64,000 bases of DNA from Polaromonas sp. (GCA_043718065.1 JAYSWJ010000086.1:8456-72455), one strand, 5' to 3'. Positions 16,127 to 57,123 are shown, numbered from the stretch's first letter. The notes: a model not told the origin generated them from the sequence alone. Translations and numbers: made by a program.

Positions 16127-16521
16127 CTACAAAATTTATAGCAAACTCATATCTTCCAGTCGCATGAACACTTAAGCACTTCGCGCTCGATGCGTTGGAA
16201 GGCGCTAGACCCAGCCTGAAATGTTTTAAATAGTGCGAGTATTAGGGCTGATAGCTCCTTCCTAAGTGCAAGAAATGGGAGTTTTGGATGCGGTTTTGCA
16301 ATGGATTAAATTTTTTTTAAAGCCTAGGAATTTATATGCTGTTTAGGCATTTTAGACCGTAGATACTGGTCAAGCAGCTATTGAATTTGTAGTGCTCTGC
16401 TTTCTTGGTTAGACGTTTAGCTCCCTCTTGGCAACGCATGGCTTTGTTGTTTACTTTGGACGGGCGGCGCACATGTCGCTCACCCTGTTAGATATAGTAT
16501 TTTGAAGGTACGTGCACCTAT

Positions 16522-16596
16522 GAGATGCAATTTGGAGTCAGCAACTGTCCTAGTAAGACAGAGTGAGATATTTATATAGTCCCGCGCGAGATAAAC
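16522..16596 (+). repeat. Left-end transposase-binding-type repeats L1-L3
   Basis: GAGATGCAA (16522), GAGATATTT (16565), GAGATAAAC (16588). Start-to-start spacing is 43 and 23 bp. The same core occurs inverted at the right end. Confidence 0.6.
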
Positions 16597-16638
16597 AGGC
16601 GACTTAGTGGGACTCGGGGATGAAAAAGGGGACAGGCT

Positions 16639-16664
16639 AAAAAATACAGTTTCCTGTCAGGAAA
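16639..16664 (-). terminator. Putative terminator of the leftward late operon
   Basis: The palindrome TTTCCTG-T-CAGGAAA (16650-16664) spans the stop codon of the last gene. On the minus strand it is followed by CTGTA + TTTTTT (16639-16644). Confidence 0.4.
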
Positions 16665-16986
16665 TAATTGGCGCATTAGAAATATTGTCGATCAGAGAGG
16701 CTATTAGTGACCCGGAGGCCCATGTCTTAACTATCCTTACTTCCCCAGAGCCTCGTTCAACTATTGTCACAATAGTTGCCTGGTTGGGCTCCGCACAAAG
16801 TGAAGCCCGCGCATCTAATTTTTGTAGATAGCGGCCTAAGGCCGATCTTGAAAGATCTACGATCTTTAAATCTTGAATTAGATCAATCAGATCATCAAGA
16901 TTTAAATGTCTATTTGCTTGAATACACTGATAAATTTTCGCCTTCTTGGCAGAATCCAGCTTGTCTATAGTAGATTTTTGACCCAT
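16657..16986 (-). CDS. Truncated paralog of the DUF3486-type small-terminase N-terminal (HTH) domain
   Basis: 109 aa. The N-terminal ~60 aa align by eye with the ORF at 21222-21788 (MGxKSxI..L...K..I......L..LI.DLQ......LSRSAxGRYxQKL). The C-terminus is unrelated. The gene is visibly AT-richer than the rest of the phage. Confidence 0.55.
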   Translation of the reverse strand: MGQKSTIDKLDSAKKAKIYQCIQANRHLNLDDLIDLIQDLKIVDLSRSALGRYLQKLDARASLCAEPNQATIVTIVERGSGEVRIVKTWASGSLIASLIDNISNAPIIS

Positions 16987-16993
16987 TTTTAAC

Positions 16994-17509
16994 TCACTTT
17001 GTTAAATAGCTCTCGATGATCAAGAGGATGTTGGTTTTGTCGGCAGGGCTGATGCCTAGGAAGGGGCGGGCGGGGATATCGCCCCATAGATGGGGGAATT
17101 GGGACTTGGTGCCGCCAAACTGCTGCATGGCGGCGTATTCCATCGGGCTGCCCACTGAAACTCCGGCTGCGCCCTTTAGCTGGTAGTTGATGGTGGTGGC
17201 TAGGGCGCGGGATTCGCCCGTCAGGGGCTTTTTACCCGCGGTGCGCGCCGCACCTTTCTTACTTAGGCTGCCGTCTTTTTTGAAATTTCCACCCGTTTGG
17301 CCTAAAAATCGGGCGCCGGTGACGGCGCTGTTAGCAGCCCAAGCTGTGCCATCGGGGCTAGTAGCAGAGCTAAAACGACGCTTAGTGGTGTCTACCAAGT
17401 CTTCTCCGATCTCCAGAAAAGCGGGGCGCATGTTTTTGGCACGGCCAATGATCTCGCTTAAACGATCCTGCACCTGCTTGTCGTTGTATTTGACGGTTAC
17501 TGTACTCAT
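16994..17509 (-). CDS. Virion morphogenesis protein (Mu gpG-like)
   Basis: The profile MSTVTVKYNDKQV...MRPAFLEIGEDLVDTTKRRF...DGTAWA matches the phage virion morphogenesis family. It sits after the F-like gene. An alternative start lies at 17548. Confidence 0.8.
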   Translation of the reverse strand: MSTVTVKYNDKQVQDRLSEIIGRAKNMRPAFLEIGEDLVDTTKRRFSSATSPDGTAWAANSAVTGARFLGQTGGNFKKDGSLSKKGAARTAGKKPLTGESRALATTINYQLKGAAGVSVGSPMEYAAMQQFGGTKSQFPHLWGDIPARPFLGISPADKTNILLIIESYLTK

Positions 17510-17513
17510 TTGG

Positions 17514-18305
17514 CTAATTCCCCGCTTTGAATTTTGCGATATCGGCAACCAAAGCTTGAGCGATCGCTTCGGGGTAGCTGATCAGCTTATCTTGCACCAT
17601 CTGGGTTAGCGAGGCCTCTACATTGGCACCAGGTGCATAAGCCCAGCCTTTGTCTATGCCCGCTGGCGCGCCTGTTTTAGAGTCGATGGCGTCCCAGCCT
17701 TCGGGTGGCGCTGTGGCATCGCCCGAAGCAGGCCCGCGTACAGCTTTAATACGGCACTGGCAACCCCAGCCATTGGGCGGGAAGTGGGTGCGCCAAAAAG
17801 GGTGGTCTTTTGGAAGGGTCAGCTTGGAGTCACCCCAGGCCTGGTGCAATGGGCGGGGCGAAAGCACGCTGTCGCTGTGGATGTATTGCCAAAAGGGCCG
17901 CGCGCGCGCCAGATCTGGGTCGTTGAGCTGCGCCCAGCGGCCTGCAGCGTAGCTGGTGGCGATGTTGGTCTGGTAGATCACGCGCGTTCGCCAAGCCTCG
18001 CCTGCCTTAGTGCCTTGGCCGGTCCAGCCCGCCCAGCCGGACTTGCGCACTGCCTGGGCAAAGTCTTTGCGAAACTGGCCTATGCTTCCGCCAGTGACAG
18101 CTTTATCAACCGCCGCGCGCAGGTCGCTAAGCAGGTCGGCTTTTTGGGCACCGGCCACGTAAAACGCTTTGTCGTTAGCCCGAGTTTGAATATCGTCCCA
18201 ACGCTCGGTAGGCAAATTAAGCTTATCGCGGAAAAAGTCGATTTGCTCTTGGAACTGCTGACGCAGGCCGTCTAATTCGATGGCGATATCTTCGGGCGAG
18301 GCCAT
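17514..18305 (-). CDS. Head morphogenesis protein (Mu gpF / SPP1 gp7 family)
   Basis: The C-terminal PNGWGCQCR motif and its position directly after the portal gene support the call. Confidence 0.85.
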   Translation of the reverse strand: MASPEDIAIELDGLRQQFQEQIDFFRDKLNLPTERWDDIQTRANDKAFYVAGAQKADLLSDLRAAVDKAVTGGSIGQFRKDFAQAVRKSGWAGWTGQGTKAGEAWRTRVIYQTNIATSYAAGRWAQLNDPDLARARPFWQYIHSDSVLSPRPLHQAWGDSKLTLPKDHPFWRTHFPPNGWGCQCRIKAVRGPASGDATAPPEGWDAIDSKTGAPAGIDKGWAYAPGANVEASLTQMVQDKLISYPEAIAQALVADIAKFKAGN

Positions 18306-19834
18306 TACACGGCCTTGGCAGTCTCGGAGACCACTGCGTCTAGCCCGGCCAGCTCAGCCGCGGCGAAGGCCAGCGCCATCAGCTCTTGCAACTTGTCGCT
18401 AGGAAGGTTGCCATAGGCGTTGACCAGCTGGTCGCGCAGCGCCTCAATGCTGGGCGCAGCGCTGACCATCTCGGAGATTTGCTGCATCCATTGGGACAGC
18501 ACGAGGTCGCCCGCTTTGTTAATGTTTTCCAAAATAGGGTCGGTGGGTAGCGCTGGTTTGGCTGGGTTGCCCTCGGCAAAGCTGGTGGGTGTCGCTATAG
18601 GTAAAACAGGCGCGGCCAGCGGAGCAGGTGCCAGCTCCCAGCCATCGCCATAGCGCTCACGCACATATTCCAAGGTGGGCTTAAAGCCCAAAGAAGCCAC
18701 GTTCACATCGGTGTCTGACGCGGCCTTGAGGTCTTCAGCCTTTTTGATATCGCGGCTAACCATGCAGGGCGTGAGGCCGTTGTACTCGCAAATCCACTGA
18801 ATCAGGGTGCTATTGAGGGTGTCGCTGAGCAGGTCGGAGTCGGCTTGCACCAGGTCAAGACGCACGTCCTCGCGCTCATTGGCGGCGGCACCGGTTGCGC
18901 CCGTAGTCTGCGTGGCCTCTTGGCTTAATATGACCTCAGAAATCCAGTTGTCCATATAGGCACACAGGTCTTTTTGGGTGCTGATGGAGCCTGTCAGTTT
19001 GCTTTCGAGTAGCTCGATGGACATGCCGTCTGGCGTCATCAGCACGCCGTCGTTGCTCATGGCCTTAAGGGCATCAAATAGCGTGCCCTTTTCCTTCGCG
19101 CCCGCGTTGTTGGGATATTTCCCCCAAGGGGTTGGAGACCCAAAACGATCGTTCAACTTGTTCCAGCTCAAAATACCTTTGCGCTTGAAAAAAACAGGCC
19201 AGTAGAGCTGCAAGCCCAGGCCCGTGCCGTAGGGGTTGTCATCTTCAGGATTAAAACGGTGCACGATGAATTTGCGATCTGGCAGTGGCTCGCCCGTAAG
19301 CATGTTTTGCGCCGTCAGCAGGCGCAGCTCGGGGGCGGCATTCGGGTCGGTCTGTTGGTATACAAAGCGGCGCTGCGCGCGCTTGACAATGCGCACGGGA
19401 ACGATCATGTTTTCTCGGGCAGACCAGACGATTTCTGCGGGCACAAAGCCCAAGATCAATGCATTTAAAAAATCGCTGCAAACCCTGTCAAACATTAGGC
19501 GTTTGAGCATGCCCTGCACGATCTCAGCATCCTTTTGGCCCTGCGGGCCATCCTCTACCGGATCCACTTTCCACGGGCGGCTAATCAGCGCTAACTTGCG
19601 CTTTTGCAAGCCGCTAAAAACCTTGCCGTCGCGCAGCAAGTCTTTGTACAGCTCGTAGCTATTGCCTGCGCTGCCGCGCTCTAAAAGCAAAGGGTCGTTG
19701 GTGCGAATTAGTCCGTTGAACAAGTTTTCAAAAGGGTCACGCAGGCGATTGGCCACCTCGGTGTTGAGCTCAGGCGATGGTGCGGCGCTGCTACCCACGG
19801 CGGTTGATTTAATGATCGTTTTAGAAGTGGCCAT
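18305..19834 (-). CDS. Portal protein (Mu gp29 / DUF935 family)
   Basis: About 509 aa from the ATG at 19834, which shares TAATG with the TerL stop. Size, position and sequence profile fit DUF935 portals. Confidence 0.8.
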   Translation of the reverse strand: MATSKTIIKSTAVGSSAAPSPELNTEVANRLRDPFENLFNGLIRTNDPLLLERGSAGNSYELYKDLLRDGKVFSGLQKRKLALISRPWKVDPVEDGPQGQKDAEIVQGMLKRLMFDRVCSDFLNALILGFVPAEIVWSARENMIVPVRIVKRAQRRFVYQQTDPNAAPELRLLTAQNMLTGEPLPDRKFIVHRFNPEDDNPYGTGLGLQLYWPVFFKRKGILSWNKLNDRFGSPTPWGKYPNNAGAKEKGTLFDALKAMSNDGVLMTPDGMSIELLESKLTGSISTQKDLCAYMDNWISEVILSQEATQTTGATGAAANEREDVRLDLVQADSDLLSDTLNSTLIQWICEYNGLTPCMVSRDIKKAEDLKAASDTDVNVASLGFKPTLEYVRERYGDGWELAPAPLAAPVLPIATPTSFAEGNPAKPALPTDPILENINKAGDLVLSQWMQQISEMVSAAPSIEALRDQLVNAYGNLPSDKLQELMALAFAAAELAGLDAVVSETAKAV

Positions 19835-21222
19835 TACATGAATCCTTGTGCTTCGTAGCCGCGTGGTTGCCCGCTGGAGCGGAACTCTATCGGTGCGCGG
19901 GGGCTGCTGGCGGCTTGCATGGCTAGCGCCAGCGCCCAAAAGTGGTCGGCGTGGCCATCGGGCGTGCTCTCGGCGGTAAATCGGACATTGCCCGTGCTGG
20001 TAACCTGCTTAGTCACGGCGCGCAGGTCGGCGCGAATCTTGGGGTCGTAGGGGATGCGTAGCTTTTTGTCTTCAAAGGCCCCCCGTACCGGGTAGGCCAT
20101 CGCTTCCTTGCTGCGCTGGGTGAAGGTGACGGCTTCTACACGGAATTCGCCAAACTTGTCTTGCGCATCGTCAGCCCAGCCAATGCCTAGGCCAGTGGCA
20201 TCGATGCAAGTGCGGTCGCACTGCTCTATCCACGGCCAAATGATCTTTTCTTGGTCGCTTTTGCGCATGTTTTGCATGCGCTCCACATGGCGGGTGTACA
20301 GCGTGTCGCCCAGCTGTTCAAACACCCAGAGCACGGTTAAATCCTTTTTGCGGCCAATGTCTATGCCTGCGTACAAGGGGCCGTTTTGGCGCTGCTGCCA
20401 GTTGGTGCCGCCCGCATATTCGCAGCCGCCGATCAGGCCGTATTCCAAAAAGGCCACGTCGTCGTCAGCCGGGTTGCACATGTACTCTTGTTGAAAGCTC
20501 TCTTCATCGGCGCAGCCGCTGCGCACGAAGTCAAAGTAGGCCGCCTCGTCCATCGCTTGGCGCTCGTCATCGGCGGGTAGCATCTGTTGCAGTTTGGCTA
20601 AGAAGCCTTGGTCGATAGCGTCTTGCAAAGTGACCCGGTGCAGGCTAATACCTTTGGGGTTTTTATGCTCGCGCACCTCGCGCACCAGTTGGTTAAAAAA
20701 GTTATGGCTACCCCGGTGCGTGCTGATCAGCTCCATGCTGCCGCCCCAGGTAATACCAGGGTAAGCAATCGACCACAGCTTGCGCGGGTCGGGGTGCAAG
20801 GCAAACTCGTCCAAGATGCGGCCGCCACGCTTGCCTGCTTGGGCATCGGGGTTGCTGCTCATGCTGTGGATGCGCTTGCCGCTGTCAAATTGCAGGACGT
20901 AAGCCGTCAAGCGATCTTTGTCGTTAATGACAATCTCGCCTAGGTCTTTGGCCGCTAGATGCATGATGCCTGCCCACATCTTGCAGTCCTCAATGAATAG
21001 CCTGGCCTGCAAATCGTCCCTGCTGCTCACCCACTGGTCAAAGCGTGCGCCCTGGGCGGCGGTGCGCTCGGCGGCGGCGTAGGCGCTGGCCCAGCTCAGG
21101 CCAATCTGGCGCGACTTTTCCATCAGCTTTAAGCGGCTATTGTCGGTAATCCACTTGCTCTGAAACGGCAAGAAAATACCCTCAGAAACCGGGGTTACCT
21201 TGGCGTTGCCCTTGCGCTGCAT
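19834..21222 (-). CDS. Terminase large subunit (Mu gp28-like)
   Basis: 462 aa. It lies between the DUF3486 gene and the portal gene. Acidic nuclease motifs are in the C-terminal half (IDATGLG..., HADHFWALALA). Confidence 0.8.
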   Translation of the reverse strand: MQRKGNAKVTPVSEGIFLPFQSKWITDNSRLKLMEKSRQIGLSWASAYAAAERTAAQGARFDQWVSSRDDLQARLFIEDCKMWAGIMHLAAKDLGEIVINDKDRLTAYVLQFDSGKRIHSMSSNPDAQAGKRGGRILDEFALHPDPRKLWSIAYPGITWGGSMELISTHRGSHNFFNQLVREVREHKNPKGISLHRVTLQDAIDQGFLAKLQQMLPADDERQAMDEAAYFDFVRSGCADEESFQQEYMCNPADDDVAFLEYGLIGGCEYAGGTNWQQRQNGPLYAGIDIGRKKDLTVLWVFEQLGDTLYTRHVERMQNMRKSDQEKIIWPWIEQCDRTCIDATGLGIGWADDAQDKFGEFRVEAVTFTQRSKEAMAYPVRGAFEDKKLRIPYDPKIRADLRAVTKQVTSTGNVRFTAESTPDGHADHFWALALAMQAASSPRAPIEFRSSGQPRGYEAQGFM

Positions 21223-21788
21223 CAGCTAATCCCCAACGCTTCGCGGATCGCCTGCTTCGTGTCCTCGGTCACGCCACCCTTTACGGGCATAGCGCTAAGC
21301 TTGGCGGCTTGCTCTGCCAGTAGCTTTTTACGAGTAGCTTCTTCTACCTCGCCCTGAAACTTTTTGAGGTTGACGCTCGACCGCGTCAGCGTGGCAATGT
21401 TTTTTGCGGCGTTGCTCAGCATACCGATGCGCTCACCTGGCTCCAGGTCTTCATCAGTAGCTTCTTGCAGGTTCAAGATAGCCTCAAATAATTCGGTTTG
21501 TACCAGTGCGGTCAGCGCTTCAGAGCGCGCGTCTTTGTCATCGCCCGCCTGGGCGCTGATCATCTTGGCGGCCTCAGTGCTGGCGCGTATAGCCGACAGT
21601 CGGCGCTCTAGCTTTTGGCCATACCGGCCAATGGCTGATCGGCTGGGTAGCGTGGGGGCTGTCGCTGGAAAGCGCTCTTGCAGGTCGGCGATCAGCTCAT
21701 TAAGTGTGCACGCGCCATTCGCCAGCTGCGCAGTGATGTAACCCTTAACCTCCTCGGGCAGGCGTGCAATAGAGCTTTTGCGGCCCAT
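21222..21788 (-). CDS. Small terminase-like DNA-binding protein (DUF3486, Mu gp27-like)
   Basis: 188 aa with an N-terminal HTH-like segment and a coiled-coil C-terminus. It is immediately upstream of TerL. Confidence 0.7.
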   Translation of the reverse strand: MGRKSSIARLPEEVKGYITAQLANGACTLNELIADLQERFPATAPTLPSRSAIGRYGQKLERRLSAIRASTEAAKMISAQAGDDKDARSEALTALVQTELFEAILNLQEATDEDLEPGERIGMLSNAAKNIATLTRSSVNLKKFQGEVEEATRKKLLAEQAAKLSAMPVKGGVTEDTKQAIREALGIS

Positions 21789-21790: not shown

Positions 21791-22111
21791 CTACACCTTG
21801 GGCGGGCGCATGATGCCCGCGTCACAGGTGACTGTGTATTGCACAATGTCAATGCCGTCGCGCGTCAGGTCAACGCTGATTTGGTTCAGTGGATCCACTG
21901 CGATCTTCAGTAGCTCGCGGCTTTCTAGGTAGTCCAGTTCTCGCCGTATCTCTAGCTCGGTGGCATCGGGGTATTCGCCCTGCACAACCTGCAGCAGAAA
22001 ACGCGTAGTTGAATGCACAGGGCGGTTGATTTCAGCCGCTAGCAGTAACACCCAGCGCATAAACTCGCGGCGCGCGCGCTGCGCCTGCAGGCGCATAGTG
22101 TCTTCATTCAT
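21791..22111 (-). CDS. Phage hypothetical protein
   Basis: The ORF is in operon context and codon third-position GC bias is consistent with coding. The start is chosen at the ATG at 22111. Confidence 0.4.
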   Translation of the reverse strand: MNEDTMRLQAQRARREFMRWVLLLAAEINRPVHSTTRFLLQVVQGEYPDATELEIRRELDYLESRELLKIAVDPLNQISVDLTRDGIDIVQYTVTCDAGIMRPPKV

Positions 22112-22451
22112 GGTTCTTTTGGCCTCGTAATAGGATGTTTTCAAAGCGCATGCTCATGGCATCTAGCTTGGCCATGATGGTGGCCACGGCCTGTACATAG
22201 TCCTCGCGCCGCACGTAGTTCAGCGGCAAGTCCGCCTTAAGATTTAAAAACTGCCGCTCTACATCTATCCAGCGGTTAGCCTCTAGCCGCTGCGAGGTCT
22301 CGATCTGATCAAGCCGCTTGGATTGGCTAACAAAGCGGCTGTCGATATGCACTTCGACCTGTTTTAAAAGCAGCTTGCCTGCTGCGAAAACAAAGCCCAA
22401 GAAGGCGATCATAAGTAGCACCGCGTGCCATAGTTCAAGTTGTAATGTCAT
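22104..22451 (-). CDS. Phage membrane protein (single N-terminal TM plus coiled coil; Mu gp25/DUF2730-like)
   Basis: It has the TM segment WHAVLLMIAFLGFVFAAGKLLL and lies between the spanin and packaging genes. Confidence 0.4.
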   Translation of the reverse strand: MTLQLELWHAVLLMIAFLGFVFAAGKLLLKQVEVHIDSRFVSQSKRLDQIETSQRLEANRWIDVERQFLNLKADLPLNYVRREDYVQAVATIMAKLDAMSMRFENILLRGQKNHE

Positions 22452-23113
22452 GGGGCTGTTTTTCGAAAATTAGAAGTGGTCACAAAGTCGATCAAACGTT
22501 GGTGTGCCAGCCGGTTGGCGGCGCAGGTTTTAGCGTTGGCAATGTGGTTGTCCCAGGCATCGTCGACAGTGGCAGTGGTTGCAGCAGCACAGGCGGCAGC
22601 GGTGGGGTTAGTAGCGCTGCAGGCACCGGCGGGCTGGTCTGTACCCGTAAGGGCGCTGTTCCACACCCAGACAGCGCCAGCAGTAAGCACAGGCACACCA
22701 CCAACATCATCGCCAGCGTTGCCCGACCCAAGTTGTTCAGGCGCTGCTGCTGCACGTCCTGGTGCAAGGGCTGGCCCAATAGGTCGCACACCCAAAACAC
22801 TACCAGCGCAAGCCATAGGCCTGCTGGCCACAACCAAAGGGGTATGTTTTCGTACTGCATTAAATTTCTCCGTGAGTTGATTAAACTGTCCTGTCAGCGC
22901 CTGCGCCGAGGCCAGGTAGTCTGCGCTGGCCTTGTGGCCACGGGCTACCTCGCCCTCGTATTGTTTTTGCGCGCCTACCAGCGTGGCGGCTTGCTTGGCC
23001 TGCCACGCCTGCTCGGTATGCTTGCTGCCTTGGCTGTAGCCCAGCGCCAAGGCTGCCAAGATGGCCAGCAGGCCGATCAGCAGCTCACCCGCGATGCTTT
23101 TTATAAAGCTCAT
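22448..23113 (-). CDS. Inner-membrane spanin subunit (Rz-like)
   Basis: It has an N-terminal TM (IAGELLIGLLAILAALALGY) and a coiled-coil periplasmic domain. It follows the endolysin and contains an embedded lipoprotein ORF. Confidence 0.65.
   Translation of the reverse strand: MSFIKSIAGELLIGLLAILAALALGYSQGSKHTEQAWQAKQAATLVGAQKQYEGEVARGHKASADYLASAQALTGQFNQLTEKFNAVRKHTPLVVASRPMACAGSVLGVRPIGPALAPGRAAAAPEQLGSGNAGDDVGGVPVLTAGAVWVWNSALTGTDQPAGACSATNPTAAACAAATTATVDDAWDNHIANAKTCAANRLAHQRLIDFVTTSNFRKTAP
22492..22710 (-). CDS. Outer-membrane spanin lipoprotein (Rz1-like), fully embedded in Rz in another frame
   Basis: The signal plus lipobox is MMLVVCLCLLLALSGC. The mature part is short and proline-rich. 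Confidence 0.65.
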   Translation of the reverse strand: MMLVVCLCLLLALSGCGTAPLRVQTSPPVPAALLTPPLPPVLLQPLPLSTMPGTTTLPTLKPAPPTGWHTNV

Positions 23114-23874
23114 GGCTGCACCACCCCGCCCCAGCTGGCATAGCGCGGCTGCAGTGCACCCAAAATGCGCTGTGGGTAGCCTAAGTTTTCAGCGCAGTGC
23201 AGCTTGGCACGCTGGGCCCAGCCGCAGGCATCATCGGCCTGCTGGCGGGTGGGAAACATACGGTGCGTGCGGCTGGCCACTGCCGCCTCGCGCTTCCAGT
23301 GGCCCAGGCCACCGTTGTAGCTGCGTAGCGCCACCCATAGGCGGTCGTACTCGCTGTAGTGCTGCGGTGCGCGGTCGTACAGCCACTTGTCATAACCCGC
23401 CATGCTGCGCAGCGCCCACACCGGGTTGCTGGGCTGGCACTGGGCTGCGGGCAGCTTTTGCAAGCCGCACCACCAGGTGGCCGTAGCAGGCATAAATTGG
23501 GTTAGCCCGCGTGCACCCACGGGGCTGATGGCGCCAGGGTCCCAGTCGCTTTCCTGGTGCACCTGGGCGGCCATTGCTGCAATGGGTGCGTCTAGCCCCC
23601 ACTGGCTGTGCGCAGCACGCACCAGGTCGGCCCGGTACCGGCTGGCTTGCTGGGGCACATTGGGGCTGATAGCTTGCGCATGCACTGTGCTAGGTGCGCA
23701 CATGGCCAGCAGGCAAGCCGACAGTAGCACCGCTATAGCTACCAGCATGCAGCGTGCAGCGGTACGCAAAGGCTTGCTGTGGGCTGCTTGGTACTGTCGC
23801 AACCGGCTCGCTTCGCGGCTGCGGCAGTAGCCTTGGTACCAGCGCGAAAATGCTACACCGCTCATGCTACGCAC
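23110..23874 (-). CDS. Lytic transglycosylase (SLT domain) endolysin with N-terminal hydrophobic signal/SAR-like segment
   Basis: The catalytic region is QVHQESDWDPGAISPVGARGLTQFMPATA. The N-terminal segment is MLVAIAVLLSACLLAMCA. Confidence 0.8.
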   Translation of the reverse strand: MRSMSGVAFSRWYQGYCRSREASRLRQYQAAHSKPLRTAARCMLVAIAVLLSACLLAMCAPSTVHAQAISPNVPQQASRYRADLVRAAHSQWGLDAPIAAMAAQVHQESDWDPGAISPVGARGLTQFMPATATWWCGLQKLPAAQCQPSNPVWALRSMAGYDKWLYDRAPQHYSEYDRLWVALRSYNGGLGHWKREAAVASRTHRMFPTRQQADDACGWAQRAKLHCAENLGYPQRILGALQPRYASWGGVVQP

Positions 23875-24244
23875 CCAGGCTGACCGCGATCATGGCCGCA
23901 GAGATGATGATCGCACGGCGCAGCATGCAAGCAGCCGCTAGCGATGGCATGGAGCCATCGACCACGGGCGGCGACCACAAGCCATCGCCCACCTCGACAC
24001 CCTTGGGTATATTCAGCGCAGTAGCAGCAATAAAAAAGTGCGGGCGCGCGTAAGGGAACACACTGCGGTCAATCCAGTAGCCCGCTACAGCGGCCAGCGC
24101 CACTAGCGACAGCTTGTACAAGCTCACTGGCAGCTGCTGCGGCGCAATCAAATAGACCAAGATGGCCAATAGCGCAGCGGCCATCAGCCAATCAAACATG
24201 CGCCAAGTCCGTGGTGCTGCGGTGGGGTGGGAAGTTTTGTTCAT
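23867..24244 (-). CDS. Holin-like membrane protein
   Basis: 125 aa from the ATG at 24244 with 2-3 predicted TM segments. It is the first gene of the lysis cassette. The start is supported by the conserved 34-nt spacing to the late dyad. Confidence 0.45.
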   Translation of the reverse strand: MNKTSHPTAAPRTWRMFDWLMAAALLAILVYLIAPQQLPVSLYKLSLVALAAVAGYWIDRSVFPYARPHFFIAATALNIPKGVEVGDGLWSPPVVDGSMPSLAAACMLRRAIIISAAMIAVSLGA

Positions 24245-24278
24245 GCGGCAACTATGCCGCGCGCGCGCGAGGGCAGGC

Positions 24279-24296
24279 AACTAAAGTGCTTTAGTT
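24279..24296 (-). promoter_or_regulatory. Late-promoter dyad copy 1 (AACTAAAGCACTTTAGTT on the minus strand)
   Basis: It lies exactly 34 nt upstream of the holin-like ATG. The same dyad with the same spacing occurs at 36448 and 41650. Confidence 0.5.
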
Positions 24297-24570
24297 ATTG
24301 ACCCGGGAATTCATCCTCGCAAGGCTTGCCGTCGCTGTCTGCATCCAGCTGCGTAGCCCCAGCGGCCAAGTAGGCTAAGGCTTGGCCTAGGCTGGCCATA
24401 TCTTTGCAGGCCACCGACTTTACGCGTGATGCGTCGACTACAGGCGCGTTCGCGGTTGCCACTGTATTGCCGCAGACTTCGGCGCTGCCATTGCAAGTGC
24501 CCGTGTTACCACCGCCGCCACCGCAGGCAGTAAGGCTGGCGGCTATAACCGATGCAAAAAATGGTTTCAC
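24295..24570 (-). CDS. Lipoprotein with C-terminal Excalibur-like calcium-binding motif
   Basis: A GTG start overlaps the upstream stop (GTGA). The lipobox is VIAASLTAC. The C-terminal DADSDGKPCEDEFPG resembles the Excalibur DxDxDGxxCE motif. Confidence 0.55.
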   Translation of the reverse strand: MKPFFASVIAASLTACGGGGGNTGTCNGSAEVCGNTVATANAPVVDASRVKSVACKDMASLGQALAYLAAGATQLDADSDGKPCEDEFPGQ

Positions 24571-45457: not shown

Positions 45458-45461
45458 CGCT

Positions 45462-49202: not shown

Positions 49203-49223
49203 TTAACTAATCTGAGTCGAAAA

Positions 49224-52200
49224 ATGCCCATCCAAACCGAAGACATCAAACTCCTAAAATCCGCTGTGATGGCCGACACCAGCGATGGCGGCGGCGCTAT
49301 GACGGGCGTAGAAGTGGTAGACGGCGTTAGCAACAACCTGTTTCCTGACACGTCACAAGTTGACCGCGCCTTGGGCCGGGTCAACATTCGCCAGATATTC
49401 GGCGTGGCTCACACCAACGACACTGACGTGGCGCTGGGCGTGCACACTATCATCACCGACGCACCAGACGACCCGTTGGTGCACTGCACTTTGATGGCTG
49501 CGCCCCGCTGGGGCGCTACCCGAAATGAATACCGCGAAGCGATTGAACGCTACCTGGTCAAAGGGCCGCTGCTGGACTGCTACGCTTATGAGGCGCACTA
49601 CGCTGGTAGCTTAAGCCTGCGCCTATTCGGCAGCGGCGCAGCAGAGCTACCTACCGGTGGCGACGCGATGGTGATTCGCAGCGCCGACGGCCTGCAAGAG
49701 CAGTTCTTGCGCGTGCTGCGTGTTTCGACCTCTACGGTCACCAAGGGCAAGCGCACAGTACAAGTGGGCCTGTGCGACCTGGGGCAGGCGCTGGAGTTTG
49801 ATTTTCCGGGCAGGAACCCGGAGGATGAATCTTTATCACACGCAGGTTCTACCGCGTTTCACACCACTACGGTATCAGGCGGTGCTAAGTTTTACGGCAT
49901 CAAACCTGTGGGCGCATCAGCTGCTATTGGTGACTACAGCATTTTGACGCAAGGCGGAATTTTTGCACCCTTGGTGCCAGCGGCTACCGTAGAAAGCCCA
50001 TTGGTAGACCAGTACCCCCTACTGCTGCGCAGGGGCTTGTCGCGTACTGCGCTGGCAGCTTTGACCTTGCCGCCAGTTACCAGCGTGTGGAATGCCGGAG
50101 CTAGGCTGAGCACGCCCACTGCCATTGAACCCGGCAGCTTGGCGCTGACGCATGCGGGTGTGAGCTTTACCGATGACGGCGCGGGTAAGCTTAAGCAAGG
50201 CACTACTGTGGTGGGCAGCATTGATTACAAGGGTCGCACTGCCACATTGGCTGCAGGCGCACCGTCGTACGGTAGTGGCACCAGCGCCATTACCTACCGT
50301 CCGGCGACGTTGGCTGGCGCGGGCACCCACAGCGCAGCGCAAGAGGTCACTATTGCCAACCAAGGGTTGGTGTACACCTTTGCATTTGAGCCGCCGCCTG
50401 CGCCTGGCACCTTTACGCTGAGCTACATGGCGCAGGGCCGCTGGTACGCGCTAGAAGACAACGGGTCGGGCAAGCTAAGCGGGGCAGATACAAGCTACGG
50501 CATCGGCACTATCAGCTACGCCAGCGGCTCTATCGGTGTGACACTGGGAGCGATACCCGATATAGGCTCGTCGCTGATCTATCAATGGGGCACAGCGGAC
50601 GCCGCAGTGGCCTACAGCGTAGTGCGTCCGACTAAGTTGTCAACAACCATTGATCTGCCCTACAGCGTGAATGCCGCCAGCTTAACGATGACTTGGTCGC
50701 GTGGTGCAGCTAACTACAGTGCCACCTGCTCAGCACAGGGCGTGCTGGCAGGTGATGCCACGGGCACAGCTAAAGTGGTATCGCGCCGCACTGGTTCAAA
50801 CTTAAGCAATTACTACAATCCCAATAACCCGTTTCCGGTGACCTACGCTTTTGAGCTGGAGTTCTCCCCCAACGTGTTTCCAGACGGCGCAGTAGCTATC
50901 GCCTGGCAACAGCGGCCCAACTCTTTTTCAGACGCCGTTAACAACGGCACGGGCTCCTACACACTAGGTCGCCCACCTGCTACGGGCAGTGTCAGCTTGA
51001 CGGTGCAGACGCTGTACGAAGCTGGATTTGACCTACCGCAGGCTATTAACGCGGTAGACAATGGTGCAGGTGCTCTGCTGTCTACCTCTATTGGCAGCCA
51101 GGGCGCGATAGTGGGAACTATCAACTACACCACGGGCGCTGTGACCGTAGTGGCCAACATGCCGATGGATGTTTACGAGCGTATTAGCGTGACGGCACAG
51201 GTGGGGGCCATAGGCGGCACAGTGCCGCAAAACTATGAGTCACGCGTACTTCGCGCCGGCAAAAACGTCACTCTTAAAAACGCTGCGATCGGCACCATCA
51301 GCCACGCAGCAGGCGCGGTGTCGCCCGGTACCGGGCTGACTGTCACACCTACAAGCTATTCGGCCAAGCTGAAAATTGAGGCAGGGTTGACGATGCAAGA
51401 CGGCGACTTTGCGTTTACCTGCGGTGACGCGGTTTACTACGGCCTGGCTAACGTGATTTCAAAGGGCTGGGTTGCTAGCACAGGTGTGCCCTCGGTCGAG
51501 AACTGCGGTAATGCCACCTCTGACGGTGTAGTCACGGTAAACAGCCTGCCAGCCAACGGAGTTAACAGCTTAGCATTTGCCAATGCTGCGGTCAACAAAG
51601 CTGGCGACCTGCGGGTCAGTCAGGGCGTGTTTCGTGTCGCGTCTGCACCGCTCAAAGCAGGTGTCTTTCAGCTGCAATCGGTCGCTCAGGTAGCGCAGGC
51701 CAATGGTGCTGGCGTGATCGCAGGTGGCGGTTTTACAGGGCTGGTGGACTATGCGCGAGGTATTGTTCGCTGGGGTAGGTTAGGATCCTTCGTGGGTGAC
51801 ATGGTGCAAGCCGATGCACTGAGCTACAACGCTGTATTTCTGCAATATTTGCCCTTAGACGCTAACTTGCTAGGTTTGCAAACTGCCCGCCTACCGCTAG
51901 ACGGCAAGGTGCCTATCTACCGTGCTGGCGGCTTGGTGGTGGTGCACAACACGCAAACCTTTGCGGTGCCCAGCCCTTTGACAAAGGGTACGGCGTACAA
52001 CATTGGCCGCGGCAGGTTGTCTAGCGTCAAGATCAAAACAGCTACAGGCGGCACCGTGCCTAGTGCGCTGTACATAACTAACTTGGACACCGGTACGGTC
52101 ACCGTGCCGACTGGTTCAAACATCACAGCGCTGCCCCAACCTTGGGCGCTGGAGCATCGAATTGAAGACCTGGTAGTGTGCAGCGAGGCGGATATCAGCG

Positions 52201-52727
52201 GTAAGCTAAAGTTCACTCGCTCGCTCACGCACGTTTTCCCCGCTGCAACGTCGTTTGTCAGCAGCGCGTTGGTTGCAGGCGATGCGTTTGGTAGGGTGTA
52301 CGGTGTGTTTGACCAGCAGACCTGGACGGGCGCATGGAGCGACGCGCGCATCGGCAGCGACACCCTGGCGAGCTACAACACCATTGACTATCCGATCACC
52401 ACCACGAACCGTGGGGCTGTGAAAGAACGCTGGGCGCTGATATTCACCAGCAACACCGCTTTTAGGGTGGTGGGCGAGAACTACGGTCAGGTGGCCACAG
52501 GTGACATTAACACCGTGTGCCAGCCAAACAACACCGCCACAGGCGCACCGTTTTTTAGCATACCTGTATTGGGCTGGGGCGGCGGCTGGGCGGCAGGTAA
52601 TGTGCTGCGTTTGTCTACCGACGCTTGCGGCGCAGCCATAGGGGTGGTGCGTACAGTTTTACAGGGGCCGGATACGCTGGCCAGTGATAAGTTCACCTTG
52701 GCCTTGCGCCTTGACGTGAACGCTTAA
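49224..52727 (+). CDS. Large (1167 aa) tail tip / host-specificity-type protein, family not recognised
   Basis: The call rests on size and position only. Confidence 0.45.
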   Translation: MPIQTEDIKLLKSAVMADTSDGGGAMTGVEVVDGVSNNLFPDTSQVDRALGRVNIRQIFGVAHTNDTDVALGVHTIITDAPDDPLVHCTLMAAPRWGATRNEYREAIERYLVKGPLLDCYAYEAHYAGSLSLRLFGSGAAELPTGGDAMVIRSADGLQEQFLRVLRVSTSTVTKGKRTVQVGLCDLGQALEFDFPGRNPEDESLSHAGSTAFHTTTVSGGAKFYGIKPVGASAAIGDYSILTQGGIFAPLVPAATVESPLVDQYPLLLRRGLSRTALAALTLPPVTSVWNAGARLSTPTAIEPGSLALTHAGVSFTDDGAGKLKQGTTVVGSIDYKGRTATLAAGAPSYGSGTSAITYRPATLAGAGTHSAAQEVTIANQGLVYTFAFEPPPAPGTFTLSYMAQGRWYALEDNGSGKLSGADTSYGIGTISYASGSIGVTLGAIPDIGSSLIYQWGTADAAVAYSVVRPTKLSTTIDLPYSVNAASLTMTWSRGAANYSATCSAQGVLAGDATGTAKVVSRRTGSNLSNYYNPNNPFPVTYAFELEFSPNVFPDGAVAIAWQQRPNSFSDAVNNGTGSYTLGRPPATGSVSLTVQTLYEAGFDLPQAINAVDNGAGALLSTSIGSQGAIVGTINYTTGAVTVVANMPMDVYERISVTAQVGAIGGTVPQNYESRVLRAGKNVTLKNAAIGTISHAAGAVSPGTGLTVTPTSYSAKLKIEAGLTMQDGDFAFTCGDAVYYGLANVISKGWVASTGVPSVENCGNATSDGVVTVNSLPANGVNSLAFANAAVNKAGDLRVSQGVFRVASAPLKAGVFQLQSVAQVAQANGAGVIAGGGFTGLVDYARGIVRWGRLGSFVGDMVQADALSYNAVFLQYLPLDANLLGLQTARLPLDGKVPIYRAGGLVVVHNTQTFAVPSPLTKGTAYNIGRGRLSSVKIKTATGGTVPSALYITNLDTGTVTVPTGSNITALPQPWALEHRIEDLVVCSEADISGKLKFTRSLTHVFPAATSFVSSALVAGDAFGRVYGVFDQQTWTGAWSDARIGSDTLASYNTIDYPITTTNRGAVKERWALIFTSNTAFRVVGENYGQVATGDINTVCQPNNTATGAPFFSIPVLGWGGGWAAGNVLRLSTDACGAAIGVVRTVLQGPDTLASDKFTLALRLDVNA

Positions 52728-52735
52728 ATTTTGGA

Positions 52736-53935
52736 GTGACTATGAGCGAATTTGTATTGGACTTTGACAGCAGCGAAACCGGCGCGCCGGTGCTAAACAA
52801 TGCACCGGGCAGCATGATCGGCGTGCTGGATGCCTGCTTGGTCACTGGGTTTAACAGTCGGGCGATCACCGGATTGGTGGTCGCAGCGGGCGTGGCCACT
52901 GCGACCTGTGCAGGTCACGGCTACAGTAGTGGCTTTAGCAAGGATGTTGAAGTTGCAGGGGCCATACCAGCAGGTTTGAACGGGCGCAAGCAACTGACGT
53001 TTGTAGACACTAACACTTTTAAGTTTTTAGCTACCGGCGTATCGGATCAAACGGCTACGGGCACTATCACCGCCAAGCGCGCGGCCCTCGGGTGGACAAA
53101 GTTGTTCGCGGGCACCAATAAAGCGATATACAAGCGCACTGACCTCACGGCGACGACAATTATGCTGCGTGTGGTAGACACAAGTGTTGCCGCCGCTAGT
53201 GCCATAAGCGCGCGCTGGACGGCTATTGAGACGGCCACTGACGTTGACACGTTCAGTGGTCTATGCCCCACATCAGCGCAGCTACAAGACGGCTACTTTG
53301 TAAGTAAGGGGCAAAACTCAACGACAGCTAAGCAGTGGACACTAGTCGGCAGCTCGCTATTATTCTTTTTAACAACAGGTTCCTCTTCGTTCGGATTACT
53401 GCCAAACTCAGATCAAGAGGCGTGCAGCAGCATGTTGTACTGCTTCGGGGACTTCACTTCCTACAAACCCGGTGACGCATATAACTGCATTGTGTCAGGT
53501 GAGATATTAGACGCAAACGGCGGCGGCACTAGCCACGGCACGCGACCACTGGGCTCAGATCAGTCAAGCGTTTCCGTAGGCTTCCTCGGTATCCAGTGCG
53601 CGCGCGGGTACTCTCAGTTTGCTGGAGCTGTGACACTTGGCGTGTTTGGTGCGGGCGGTCAGCGCAGTGGTTCGAGCGGTCAGTTTGTCTTTCCTAGCCC
53701 AATTGACTCCGGCTACTTAATCAGCCCTAAAACGATACTCACCGAAGCAGTACCAGGCGGCTTTGCGGCTCGGGGGGTGATGCCTGGCTTCGTGCATATA
53801 TTGGGTGTCCGGCCTATCCGCTACCGCGAAGTTGTAGATGGTATCGTTGATCTGTCAAACAGGAAGATACTAGGTCTGCAACCATACGCAGCAGGATCTG
53901 CACGCGTGGCCATTGATCTATCCGGGCCTTGGTAA
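52736..53935 (+). CDS. Tail-associated protein (unknown family)
   Basis: A 399-aa ORF in the tail operon. Confidence 0.4.
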   Translation: MTMSEFVLDFDSSETGAPVLNNAPGSMIGVLDACLVTGFNSRAITGLVVAAGVATATCAGHGYSSGFSKDVEVAGAIPAGLNGRKQLTFVDTNTFKFLATGVSDQTATGTITAKRAALGWTKLFAGTNKAIYKRTDLTATTIMLRVVDTSVAAASAISARWTAIETATDVDTFSGLCPTSAQLQDGYFVSKGQNSTTAKQWTLVGSSLLFFLTTGSSSFGLLPNSDQEACSSMLYCFGDFTSYKPGDAYNCIVSGEILDANGGGTSHGTRPLGSDQSSVSVGFLGIQCARGYSQFAGAVTLGVFGAGGQRSGSSGQFVFPSPIDSGYLISPKTILTEAVPGGFAARGVMPGFVHILGVRPIRYREVVDGIVDLSNRKILGLQPYAAGSARVAIDLSGPW

Positions 53936-53939
53936 AACT

Positions 53940-54305
53940 ATGGCGATTCGTGCAACAGGGCAAACAGGGAGGGTGCTTTCTTCCAGCCCACCTCCTATTA
54001 GCCCCGCAATACGCTCGTACGGTAGGGGGCCTATTTCAGCAGGGTGTGACTTTGAAAACGGCGGAAAACACCAGGTCACCGGCACCACTAAAGTCAAAGG
54101 CTCACCGGACTTTGCAGTTAGCCGCCGTGTACGGCTGCACGATCAACTAACCGGTCTGTTGGTGCGTGAGCAGTGGAGTCAAGCCGGCACGGGCGCGTAC
54201 TCTTTCACTCGTATTCGCGCAGGTCTGTTCTACATAGTGGCCTTTGACTACACCAACGCTTATAACGGTGTGATCGCTACCAACGTAGCGTCAGAACTGC
54301 CGTGA
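53940..54305 (+). CDS. Tail-associated protein (unknown family)
   Basis: The ATG at 53940 is 4 nt after the upstream stop. Confidence 0.4.
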   Translation: MAIRATGQTGRVLSSSPPPISPAIRSYGRGPISAGCDFENGGKHQVTGTTKVKGSPDFAVSRRVRLHDQLTGLLVREQWSQAGTGAYSFTRIRAGLFYIVAFDYTNAYNGVIATNVASELP

Positions 54306-54721
54306 CCTTATCACTTGTTGCTAGGCAGGCTAGGTTGTCAGCCATTGGCCGACTGGTAGATTCCAATGGCGGTGGGGCCGTACATTTGTACGCTGCCCCC
54401 ATGCCCGCTAAGCCAGAAAACGCTCCCGTGAACGCCCCTTTAGCAATTGTGGCATTGGCCGCAGTGTGTGGCTTTGCGGGTGCCACGCCACAAGGTCTGG
54501 CTACTTTTACGCTAACGCCAGTCACTGGCAACGCAGCGGCCACCGGACTGGTGGCGTGGGCACGGTTTGTAGATGGTGCCGGTACAGCTATTGACGACCA
54601 GGTGGCCGGCACGCCAGGTAGCGGAGCACCAGTAATTGTTACCGATAACAAGACGGTGCCTAGCGCGTTGGTTTTCTCAGGTGGTGAGGTGCAAATAGTC
54701 TCTGCAGTTTGGGCCGAGTAA
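54302..54721 (+). CDS. Tail-associated protein (unknown family)
   Basis: A GTG start overlaps the upstream stop. Confidence 0.35.
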   Translation: MTLSLVARQARLSAIGRLVDSNGGGAVHLYAAPMPAKPENAPVNAPLAIVALAAVCGFAGATPQGLATFTLTPVTGNAAATGLVAWARFVDGAGTAIDDQVAGTPGSGAPVIVTDNKTVPSALVFSGGEVQIVSAVWAE

Positions 54722-54722
54722 T

Positions 54723-56546
54723 ATGCCCACAGAGTTACTGTTTCAAGACCCGCCGTATGCGGGGCAGCCTATTAACTTGGTGTTTGGCGGCTCAGGCTCG
54801 GTCGTAGCTTCGCCAGCGTTCGTCACCGTCTACATCACACACCCAGCGCCTGCGTTTAGCGCCATAGCGGTCTACGACAACCGTGTCACGCGCTGGCGCG
54901 ATCAGCGGGTCGGTGTGGGCTTTGACGTTGGGCTGCCCAGATTGCGTCAACAGGACTCTAGCTGGGGACTGTCAGCCAAAGAACTGGGCGGCACACATTT
55001 GGGTTGGGGGCAAGCTGAGCGCAAAGCTGGGCAAGTGGCTGTGCATCTGGCAATCGCTGATCAGCGCGCCAGCAAGCGTGACTTGGCGTATCAGCAGGCT
55101 TTGGGGTTAATCGTTACAGCTATGTCAGCCCTAGAAGTCGCCACGCAGCACGAGCGGGTAGCCTCGCTACTGTGGCAGCAAGCCTTGGCTAAGTCACACA
55201 CGCGCGTGTCAGCTATGGAGGCCGCTACGCGCCACCGCAACGAGTTACTTGCTGAGTGGCAATTACCGCTGCCACGGGTCTACCAGCGCACCAACCTGTT
55301 CGGGGTCGCCAGCACGTTGCACGCCTTGGCGCAAATCATGCCTTGGGAACGTGTACGACAGGCAGCTAACGGCAAAGAGGCGTGGCCGCCTATTGTGGTG
55401 CCGCCCACCTACTACATCCCGGACGATAACCTCCTGTTTCAGTGCCCACCACTAAGCGCCCCGTGGGTGCTGTTGTTTGGTGATAAACCCTGCTACCTTG
55501 AGCAGGGCGCTGCATTATCTATTCTGCCTTCGAGGTACTACATGACGATCAATACAATTCAAGCGCAACTACTGCCCGGCTTGGCCGAGGTGCCTATCTA
55601 CGCGGGAGCCACCATCAGCCAAGATGTTGGCAGCTATGGCTGGACACTAAGTGCTACAGGCCCGGCATCCCTGCTGGTCCAGTTGGCCCCCGCGCCTGGC
55701 GTGCCTCAGCAGATTAGGCTGACCATTAATGGCATTGTGTGGGTTTTCGCAATCGACAGCCCCCGCCAAACCCATAGCTTTGGCAAGACGGTGACCCAAA
55801 TCACCGGACGTAGTATTACATCGGCCATAGGCCCGGCGTTTGCCCGTGAAACCGCACGCTTGGCCACCGACCCGTACAACGCGCAGCAGCTGGCTGTCCA
55901 AGCCCTAGAAAATACAGGTGTAACCCTTGACTGGGGCATTGATGACTGGCTGGTGCCAGCCGGCGTTTGGAGTCATTACGGTACCCCGCTAGCAGCTGTG
56001 CAGGCGATTGCGCAGGCGGCAGGCGGCTATGTGCAAAGCCACCGCAGCTTGCCCCAGCTGCAGGTGCGCCACCCTTATCCGCTGCTTCCCGGAGGTGTCT
56101 TGGGTGGGCCGTGGAATTGGAACGGGGCATTTGCAGCCGACGTGACGCTGGCTCCTGATGCCATCATCAGCCGCTCGACCGAGGTGCGCGACAGCCCTGC
56201 GCTCAATGCGGTCTACGTCTCGGGCACTACGCAGGGCGTTTTGGCATTGATTAAACGCGAAGGCACAGCGGGCGACCAGCTGGGGGCCTTGGTATCCGAC
56301 GCGCTCATCGTCGCTGCGGCCGCGGCGCGCCAGCGTGGCCTGGCCGTTTTGGGTGCAGCAGGCGGCAAAACCATGCGCCAGCTAGAGCTGCCAGTTCTGG
56401 TCGGTGCAGGTCAGCCAGGCGTGCTGAGCACCGATCAGTTAATCCAAGTTAACGACACGATACCTTGGCGGGGCCGTGTCAGGGCCGTATCAGTCACCGC
56501 AGGTTCGCCCAGCGTGCGCCAAAGCGTCTTGGTGGAGGCCGCATGA
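54723..56546 (+). CDS. Tail-associated protein with Trp-phased 28-aa tandem repeats
   Basis: 607 aa. The repeats are at aa 95-207. Confidence 0.45.
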   Translation: MPTELLFQDPPYAGQPINLVFGGSGSVVASPAFVTVYITHPAPAFSAIAVYDNRVTRWRDQRVGVGFDVGLPRLRQQDSSWGLSAKELGGTHLGWGQAERKAGQVAVHLAIADQRASKRDLAYQQALGLIVTAMSALEVATQHERVASLLWQQALAKSHTRVSAMEAATRHRNELLAEWQLPLPRVYQRTNLFGVASTLHALAQIMPWERVRQAANGKEAWPPIVVPPTYYIPDDNLLFQCPPLSAPWVLLFGDKPCYLEQGAALSILPSRYYMTINTIQAQLLPGLAEVPIYAGATISQDVGSYGWTLSATGPASLLVQLAPAPGVPQQIRLTINGIVWVFAIDSPRQTHSFGKTVTQITGRSITSAIGPAFARETARLATDPYNAQQLAVQALENTGVTLDWGIDDWLVPAGVWSHYGTPLAAVQAIAQAAGGYVQSHRSLPQLQVRHPYPLLPGGVLGGPWNWNGAFAADVTLAPDAIISRSTEVRDSPALNAVYVSGTTQGVLALIKREGTAGDQLGALVSDALIVAAAAARQRGLAVLGAAGGKTMRQLELPVLVGAGQPGVLSTDQLIQVNDTIPWRGRVRAVSVTAGSPSVRQSVLVEAA

Positions 56547-56773
56547 GCGCTCTGAACCCCTTCAAAGAACTATTAGACCTGCTGCCCAGCAGCCCGTTGT
56601 TGGTAGGCCGAGTCGTGGCGGTGGCCACGGGTGTAGTGACAGTTCAATACCCTGGCGGTGGACAACAAACCGCCCGCGGCACCGGCTATGCGCTCAATAC
56701 CAGAGTTTTTGTACGCGCTGGCACAGTTGAAGGCATTGCACCAAGTCTTGCGTTTACAACAATCGAGGTCTAA
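56543..56773 (+). CDS. Small terminal tail-operon protein (76 aa)
   Basis: It has an ATGA overlap with the upstream gene. It is the last ORF before the right end. Confidence 0.4.
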   Translation: MSALNPFKELLDLLPSSPLLVGRVVAVATGVVTVQYPGGGQQTARGTGYALNTRVFVRAGTVEGIAPSLAFTTIEV

Positions 56774-56791
56774 CCCTGTTTCCCTCTGAGC

Positions 56792-56819
56792 AATTCCTTT
56801 TCTTGGCGAGAAAAGAATT
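56792..56819 (+). terminator. Hairpin after the last phage gene
   Basis: The stem is AATTC(C)TTTTCT / AGAAAAGAATT with one bulge and loop TGGCG. It is followed by an A/T-rich tract. Confidence 0.35.
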
Positions 56820-56825
56820 ATTTAA

Positions 56826-56882
56826 GCAAATATCTCGCTGAAACCAGTCCAAATATCTCGCGCGGCTTTATCCTAGCATCTC
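56826..56882 (-). repeat. Right-end transposase-binding-type repeats R3-R1
   Basis: Reverse complements are GAGATATTT (56836-56828), GAGATATTT (56859-56851) and GAGATGCTA (56882-56874). Spacing is an even 23 bp. Confidence 0.6.
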
Positions 56883-57123
56883 GCGGTCACACAGCACCGC
56901 ACGGTATGCCTATGCCAAACGGACCTGCGGCCCTTTATTATTTGGCATAGGACACACGCTGCAGCAGTGCGCGTGCAAGAACAACGAACCGGGTATCAAG
57001 CCCAGCAGCAAGAGAGACTAAAAACCATTTCAAACGGCATTTCCAACAGCAAAATAACCCTGTAACCCAAGTAAATCCTGCTCAAGCAGCTATGAAATTA
57101 GTAGTATATCTGTAGACAATAAT

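Follow-up and report, generated by a model that had tools for sequence, protein, structure and literature searches.

Escherichia phage Mu inserts with a 5-bp target-site duplication (TSD), has TG...CA ends and carries a non-S24 repressor; its late operons are separate, with Plys ending at G and PI starting at I, and are driven by a trans-acting activator. In BcepMu (Bcepmuvirus, NC_005882), the order from attL is mor to B, A and gp16 on the minus strand, then the repressor gp17 followed by holin to terS, terL, portal, F and G on the plus strand and, after a 200-nt gap, protease, capsid and tail genes, also on the plus strand. Pseudomonas phage B3 has been described as having the Mu order with an inverted early operon (PMC5977238). 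Split arrangements are known as well: transposable prophages of Leptospira have separated TerS-TerL-Portal blocks (PMC8705779), and Pseudomonas phage Bise (OR683401), an induced P. aeruginosa prophage whose particles were detected by lysate sequencing (PMC11846083), has a late region split between G and protease. Here we compare with these systems a transposable prophage in a 64,000-nt stretch of Polaromonas sp. DNA (GCA_043718065.1, JAYSWJ010000086.1:8456-72455; hereafter the window), in which it occupies positions 16554-56870 (40,317 bp). We consider it, with a probability of roughly 85%, to be a single, apparently complete BcepMu-related transposable siphovirus prophage in which the BcepMu/B3 gene order has undergone one inversion, reaching from attL to the gap between G and protease. 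What is new beside the Leptospira and Bise arrangements is a variant of the BcepMu/B3 plan that is kept in an uncultured lineage.

Gene order relative to BcepMu, B3, Bise and Mu

Gene content and orientation were assigned by profile searches (Pfam, PHROG, NCBIfam), which give the following genes in window coordinates.

16657-16986, minus strand: 109-aa open reading frame (ORF) resembling the TerS N terminus, between G and attL
16994-17548, minus strand: G, virion morphogenesis (Phage_tail_S)
17514-18305, minus strand: F (Phage_Mu_F)
18305-19939, minus strand: portal (Portal_Mu, E 1e-95)
19834-21222, minus strand: terL
21222-21788, minus strand: terS (Phage_Mu_Gp27)
21791-24244, minus strand: BcepMu gp26-like and gp25-like small conserved genes, Rz spanin, endolysin and holin; the lysis cassette, at the start of late block 1
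23867-24244, minus strand: holin, with its ATG at 24244
25097-25903, minus strand: repressor of 268 aa, HTH_3 and Peptidase_S24 domains (LexA/CI-like)
25994-28457, plus strand: ner-like helix-turn-helix (HTH) gene, BcepMu gp16-family gene, gp12-like regulator and gp10-like gene (profile and comparison)
25994-26230, plus strand: the ner-like gene
28441-30264, plus strand: transposase A, BcepMu/B3/Tn552-related (PHROG 310, E 4.6e-56)
30261-31469, plus strand: AAA+ transposition protein B (AAA_22, PHROG 296)
31367-36339, plus strand: accessory genes of the early region, among them a dNMP phosphatase-like gene, followed by GemA, Mor and a 204-aa ORF
34846-35322, plus strand: GemA (Pfam)
35315-35728, plus strand: Mor (Pfam)
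36500-41441, plus strand: protease/scaffold, major capsid protein, decoration/cement-like gene, Mu gp36-like adaptor, tail terminator and major tail protein (late block 2)
36500-37570, plus strand: head protease (PHROG 976)
37642-38601, plus strand: major capsid protein (PHROG 1005)
41702-56773, plus strand: 1006-aa tape measure and the distal genes of a siphovirus tail, among them those for 866-, 1167-, 399- and 607-aa proteins

These assignments bear out a first-pass annotation, made from the sequence of the window, which had placed the lysis-terS-terL-portal-F-G block on the minus strand to the left of the repressor and the early and protease-capsid-tail genes on the plus strand. The same annotation had held that no single inversion produces this order and had proposed a block relocation, which is true only relative to Mu, from which two nested inversions would be needed; from the BcepMu and B3-type order, one inversion suffices. 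Searched by tblastn against BcepMu, the window proteins form a strictly collinear series in which BcepMu 383-18560 corresponds to window 35728 down to 16994, inverted, and BcepMu 18877 onward corresponds to window 36500 onward. Homologues of gp01 (Mor) through gp31 (G) keep their relative order and orientation and are then followed by those of gp32 (protease), gp34 (capsid) and gp36. Since the series is collinear, the window can be described as the BcepMu order plus one inversion between attL and the G|protease gap. Such an inversion would leave lysis, terS, terL, portal, F and G running leftward to attL and the early operon running rightward, with mor placed directly upstream of the protease-capsid-tail operon.

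Transposase A and the adjacent AAA+ protein B mark the element, on sequence, as a transposable phage, and the Pfam families Mor, GemA, Phage_Mu_Gp27, Portal_Mu, Phage_Mu_F and Phage_tail_S together with PHROG 976 and 1005 identify its Mor, GemA and Mu-type head genes. A is 54.6% identical to the transposase of Bise, the closest among isolated phages, and 28.5% to BcepMu gp09; B is 42.6% identical to BcepMu gp08. No match to A was found among solved structures, and a scan of representative genome contigs with A returned a single distant match only. Look-ups for identical proteins gave nothing for A, for IspF (with two start codons) or for the ABC permease. The tail is of the siphovirus type, as seen from a PHROG 807 major tail protein, the 1006-aa tape measure and a J-like 1167-aa protein, and profile searches detected no sheath gene in the element. 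The protease and the 607-aa tail protein, used as queries in scans, gave almost no matches. In the tail region, the 866-aa ORF (46602-49202, plus strand) has no PHROG match and a GC content of 0.52, below the value of about 0.59 in its surroundings, and may represent a host-range module acquired recently.

With BcepMu the window shares the gp16-family gene, a Tn552/IS481-related type of transposase and the attL and attR classes, each with two sites at offsets 12 and 35. It differs from Bcepmuvirus in genome order and in tail type, BcepMu having a P2-like contractile tail with sheath and tube genes, and relatedness at the nucleotide level, as would be expected within one genus, was not seen; megablast of 20 kb of the window against 50,697 phage records gave no match, and window proteins are only 28-59% identical to those of BcepMu. 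In addition, gp17 is a short HTH protein whereas the window repressor adds an S24 domain, and the termini of BcepMu are TG rather than TA. Phage B3 is, like the prophage in the window, a siphovirus with Mu-type head genes in which the early operon diverges from the lysis and head genes (A and B identities of 30% and about 40%). Its late genes, however, are contiguous on one strand (A, minus, 5.6-7.3 kb; portal, plus, 16-17.6 kb), whereas those of the window are split and divergent, so that the window does not have the B3-like order of an inverted early operon with contiguous late genes.

The late region of Bise is split at G|protease as in the window, with G beside the left end and with ends of the attL and attR classes. 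The minus strand of Bise carries G, F, portal, terL, terS, lysis, mor, B, A and ner, and its plus strand then carries the repressor, protease, capsid and tail genes; unlike in the window, the early genes share a strand with the lysis-to-G block, and the layout is that of Mu with one inversion from c to G, the repressor facing the protease. Bise also differs in its contractile tail and TG...CA ends. Mu itself shares A, B, GemA, the Mor family, portal, F, G, gp27 TerS, protease I and capsid T with the window, but its transposase belongs to another subfamily and its tail is contractile. The Leptospira prophages, compared here by description, resemble the window in the 6-bp TSD of a B3/Tn552-family transposase and, in some groups, in TA-TA ends (PMC8705779); they are without Mor/C, their hosts and sequences are unrelated, and the separated blocks and their positions differ. 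Microcystis phage Mae-JY22, in which A lies 12 kb from the start of the record, was considered as a candidate for the same order and set aside as a permuted record of the B3-type order.

Limits of the element, termini and insertion site

The element is delimited by an empty site, by its TSD and by contig ends. The corresponding features are as follows.

16548-16553, no strand: left TSD copy TCCTAG, host DNA, matched to the empty site
16554-16613, plus strand: attL-class terminus TAAGACAGAGTGAGATATTT...GCGAGATAAAC...GTGGGAC; two putative sites for the transposase lie at offsets 12 and 35
56811-56870, minus strand: attR-class terminus carrying two sites (offsets 12 and 35); its reverse complement reads TAAAGCCGCGCGAGATATTT...GCGAGATATTT
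56871-56876, no strand: right TSD copy TCCTAG, host DNA, matched to the empty site

The prophage has ispD-ispF on its left and an ABC transporter operon of the osmoprotectant type on its right. In a related genome, GCA_031367325.1 (locus L130), the same ispF and ABC-transporter neighbors flank an uninterrupted intergenic region without a prophage, and a second assembly (L134) is nearly identical to this prophage-free locus. The L130 intergenic sequence reads ...CTTTACTGTCTTGG CACCTCGCGGTCACGCAGCACC... and, across the insertion point, ...ACTGTCTTGG|CACC...; the left flank of the window ends ...CAACTGTCCTAG at 16553 and the right flank begins TCCTAGCATCTCGCGGTCACACAGCACC at 56871. An empty site rebuilt from the two window flanks matches the L130 intergenic region exactly. 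Since the joined flanks give the L130 site, with TCCTAG on both sides of the element, the prophage spans 16554-56870 and has a 6-bp duplication. Two independent Logan assemblies from two sequencing runs, both 100% identical to the window, end exactly at 56870. The resulting length fits the approximately 36-42 kb expected of transposable phages.

The termini are TAAGAC... and ...GCTTTA, that is, TA...TA and not TG...CA, and the two ends form terminal inverted repeats, each with two GAGATAT-type sites at offsets 12 and 35. BcepMu position 1 carries TGAAGAGAGGTGAGATATTT...GCGATATTTCC...GCGGGAC, of the same attL class as the left end of the window, and the right end of the window belongs to the same class as the right ends of BcepMu (TGAAGCGCGGCGCGATATTT) and Bise (TGAAGCGCGCCGCGATAA). 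The predicted mode of insertion is DDE transposition, leaving a 6-bp target duplication; such a duplication is the footprint of B3/Tn552-family transposases (PMC8705779). The short TSD and unrelated insertion sites typical of transposition are seen here in TCCTAG and in 12 related ends with unlike flanks. Ends of the TG...CA type are reported for all Mu-like and B3-like phages, with TA-TA as a novelty of some Leptospira prophages (PMC8705779). The combination of TA...TA termini with a 6-bp duplication, so far a feature of Leptospira prophages, is thus extended to a BcepMu-related group.

TG...CA ends at 16513 and 56891, called in the first-pass annotation, are ruled out by the empty site and the contig ends; the true ends lie 41 bp (left) and 21 bp (right) further in. 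No TSD of 5-7 bp was found around 16513/56891, and the outermost "GAGATGC" sites, which mimic TG...CA ends there, are host DNA, so that the earlier end calls were apparently misled by host sequence resembling the end repeats.

These limits bear directly on whether the window holds one element or two. The lysis-to-G block (16.6-24.3 kb) lies on the opposite strand and outside its canonical position, and the terL and F identities to relatives are mosaic, as would be the case if a Mu-like prophage running from repressor to tail stood next to the remnant of a second prophage. We regard this as highly improbable, since a single 6-bp TSD brackets all 40.3 kb with an exact empty site, the element has a single end of the attL class and a single end of the attR class, no head or packaging function occurs twice and none is missing from the right-hand part, and the layout recurs in at least 20 contigs (see below). 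The earlier view that this is one element, which had been argued from length and gene content, is supported. Its statement that every essential function occurs exactly once holds for full-length genes: all essential genes give full-length matches, each once, the sole exception being the 109-aa ORF, a small paralogue of the TerS N-terminal domain. The first 62 residues of this ORF are paralogous to the DNA-binding domain of TerS (Mu gp27), with 39% identity to TerS 1-65; it is kept at the same position in two relatives, L004 (52%) and L066 (41%), is absent from BcepMu and Bise, and could be a pac-site or end-binding accessory protein.

The Logan assemblies of the phage are fragmented, which leaves room for an assembly artefact, or for a chromosomal inversion, specific to the strain, in which part of a canonical prophage was turned around. 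Misassembly had been raised as a concern with the first-pass annotation, and we now give this explanation hardly any credence: independent contigs of 100% identity cross the mor-protease junction (L128, covering window 34470-48601) and the junction with host DNA on the left (L139, covering window 15913-18635), both junctions of the gene order recur in relatives of only 30-70% protein identity, and the TSD is intact, although an inversion at host level that broke once within the prophage would have destroyed it.

Assemblies SRR22198335 and SRR23617201 break exactly at the right end (window 56840-56870; L137, L138 and L139), while the left-junction contig of SRR23617201 runs on into ispF. The right-end breaks may stem from heterogeneous junctions, through active transposition or virion DNA, or simply from fragmented assembly, and are only a hint of headful packaging with variable host DNA at the ends. 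The host flanks also differ between L130 (4151-4783 and 5090-5330) and the window (16127-16553 and 56877-57123): L130 carries a 210-aa TfoX_C/DNA_binding_1 gene 3' of ispF that is absent from the window, and a hairpin to the right of the insertion site is enlarged to about 260 nt in L130. A 17-nt motif, TCAAGCAGCTATGAAAT, occurs in six copies with up to 3 mismatches (0.17 expected) at 5817, 7355, 13558, 16370, 27281 and 57082, mostly in intergenic host DNA on either side of the prophage, whereas one copy, inverted, stands in the phage immediately before the gp10-like gene. Those at 16370 and 57082 have conserved counterparts at homologous places in L130/L134, and the motif may be a host uptake or regulatory sequence.

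Repressor, late promoters and proposed regulation

The features relevant to regulation, together with two genes beside the repressor, are listed below.

24281-24294, no strand: dyad CTAAAGTGCTTTAG of block 1, a putative promoter element dependent on Mor, placed 36 nt before the holin ATG
24295-24594, minus strand: Excalibur-domain lipoprotein, moron-like (profile)
24567-25086, minus strand: DUF4124 secreted protein, moron-like (profile)
25923-25952, plus strand: predicted sigma-70-like early promoter, near-consensus TTGACA-18-AATAAT, divergent from the repressor
36340-36445, plus strand: spacer rich in hairpins, separating the early/middle operon from late block 2 (fold z = -3.5)
36450-36463, no strand: dyad CTAAAACAGTTTAG of block 2, a putative promoter element dependent on Mor, placed 36 nt before the protease ATG

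The repressor combines an HTH domain with the S24 autopeptidase domain of the first annotation, with an Ala-Gly site, a GDSM serine and a VKR lysine visible in its sequence. Because these are the residues expected for RecA-stimulated autocleavage, SOS-linked induction is plausible.

A CTAAA-N4-TTTAG dyad with a TT extension occurs in exactly two copies, one per late block, and the spacing from dyad to first ATG is identical, at exactly 36 nt, in both. The suggestion that each late unit carries its own promoter is thereby strengthened: the split falls at late-operon boundaries and the same predicted dyad stands before each block. A closely related dyad, (C/T)TAAA-N4-TTTA(A/G), lies upstream of protease in the same-order relatives L073, L076, L078, L093, L094 and L096, and upstream of holin in one same-order relative. 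No Shine-Dalgarno sequence is visible before either late-block ATG (24244-24294 and 36450-36502), and the late mRNAs may be leaderless or nearly so. The several hairpins in the spacer 3' of the 204-aa ORF are consistent with a putative insulation from, or termination of, the early operon.

In the lysogen, the S24 repressor would close the divergent early promoter and would probably be co-transcribed with the two moron genes. RecA-stimulated autocleavage would then derepress ner, A, B, gemA and mor, and Mor, the product of the only Mor-family gene in the element, would act in trans on the two copies of the late-promoter dyad. Because Mor would act in trans, the orientation and position of the late operons would be immaterial and the inversion functionally neutral. 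The prophage is probably functional. If trans-activation of this kind operates, the Mu-type late region consists of at least two independent operons that tolerate inversion or re-joining without the element being lost. The small Excalibur and DUF4124 genes, which follow the repressor gene directly and precede the late promoter, look like morons expressed in lysogeny.

Uncultured relatives and the origin of the arrangement

Relatives were sought as IMG/VR contigs, fetched with B or with terS, and isolated phages in INPHARED. All 20 B-fetched loci that extend far enough on both sides show both junctions of the window order, namely a minus-strand lysis/terS/repressor group upstream of A and, on the plus strand, protease/capsid immediately behind gemA/mor; about ten further contigs show one of the two. 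B is 43-69% identical in the 20 same-order contigs (≥50% in 19), while loci with a more distant B (39-47%) have the Mu order. The order is thus not unique, being shared by at least 20 IMG/VR contigs; among the INPHARED phages matching A, B, portal or capsid, of which few records were viewed whole, none was seen with it. A whole lineage of uncultured prophages retains the split arrangement, and boundary or synteny classifiers that expect Mu, D3112 or B3 orders will mis-delimit such elements.

An attL-class end directly 3' of F-G was found in 12 IMG/VR loci, each with an unrelated flank, by scanning the fetched loci for the two-site pattern; in L221 this end is preceded by a truncated degP-like gene. 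TA left ends are common to L004, L066, L232, L236 and L237, whereas BcepMu and other relatives have TG. L004 is also the closest relative of the window packaging genes (terS 87%, terL 93%, portal 86%). In a second same-order prophage, UViG 2837207954_000001, the left end was recovered inside a degP-like gene; the right end was not recovered because the contig stops before it.

The terS-fetched contigs include about 20 with the B3/BcepMu order, that is, A on the minus strand and lysis to G followed by protease on the plus strand. The G|protease gap of such B3-type loci is about 250 nt long and holds a conserved GTAAA...TTTAC element, which argues that the breakpoint is a pre-existing operon boundary. 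In two of them, L033 and L058, F, G and capsid are 52-72% identical to those of the window, above most same-order relatives, and L007 is likewise closer, so that late modules have clearly been exchanged between architectures. These identities, along with the different rearrangement of Bise at the same G|protease breakpoint, would also fit a modular origin in which block 1 with attL and the early/block-2 unit came from different phages, with no BcepMu-ordered ancestor. We judge this unlikely: from mor to G, with the immunity region included, each gene of the inverted segment stands in line with its BcepMu counterpart, and the left end is still of the attL class, both of which make modular assembly less parsimonious than one inversion.

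Several points weigh against a functional prophage derived from the BcepMu/B3 order by one inversion. The same order could result if lineages had exchanged modules, neither the direction of past rearrangement nor the number of events can be proven, and the terL, F, G and capsid identities are mosaic among relatives. The TA...TA termini depart from the TG...CA called conserved in Mu- and B3-like phages (PMC8705779). Transposase A has no Pfam match, its NCBIfam matches to IS481, IS21 and IS3 are all sub-threshold, and its DDE catalytic residues are putative. The late promoters are sequence predictions, and the short dyad-to-ATG distance implies either mRNAs that are leaderless or nearly so, or else a different true start codon. 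Induction and particle formation are likewise predicted from sequence.

A broader proposal can be made only tentatively, and we doubt that it will hold in full. The same-order prophages might form a distinct BcepMu-related siphophage clade, of about genus to subfamily rank, with an inverted left arm and with a sub-branch that has TA termini and a 6-bp duplication; Mor might drive two divergent, possibly leaderless, late operons from one type of dyad; and the G|protease gap might be a recurrent hotspot, used here and in Bise, perhaps through the element's own intramolecular transposition.

Among the relatives, L221-L223, L228, L230, L016, L019 and L023 have about 5-6 kb extra between portal and F, with an ORF of roughly 710 aa, at a place where the window has nothing. 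Finally, the 7-kb contig L057 (IMGVR_UViG_2630968571_000006) carries a BcepMu-like attL, mor and gemA on the minus strand and then terS and terL on the plus strand, and looks like a deletion derivative or a further arrangement.

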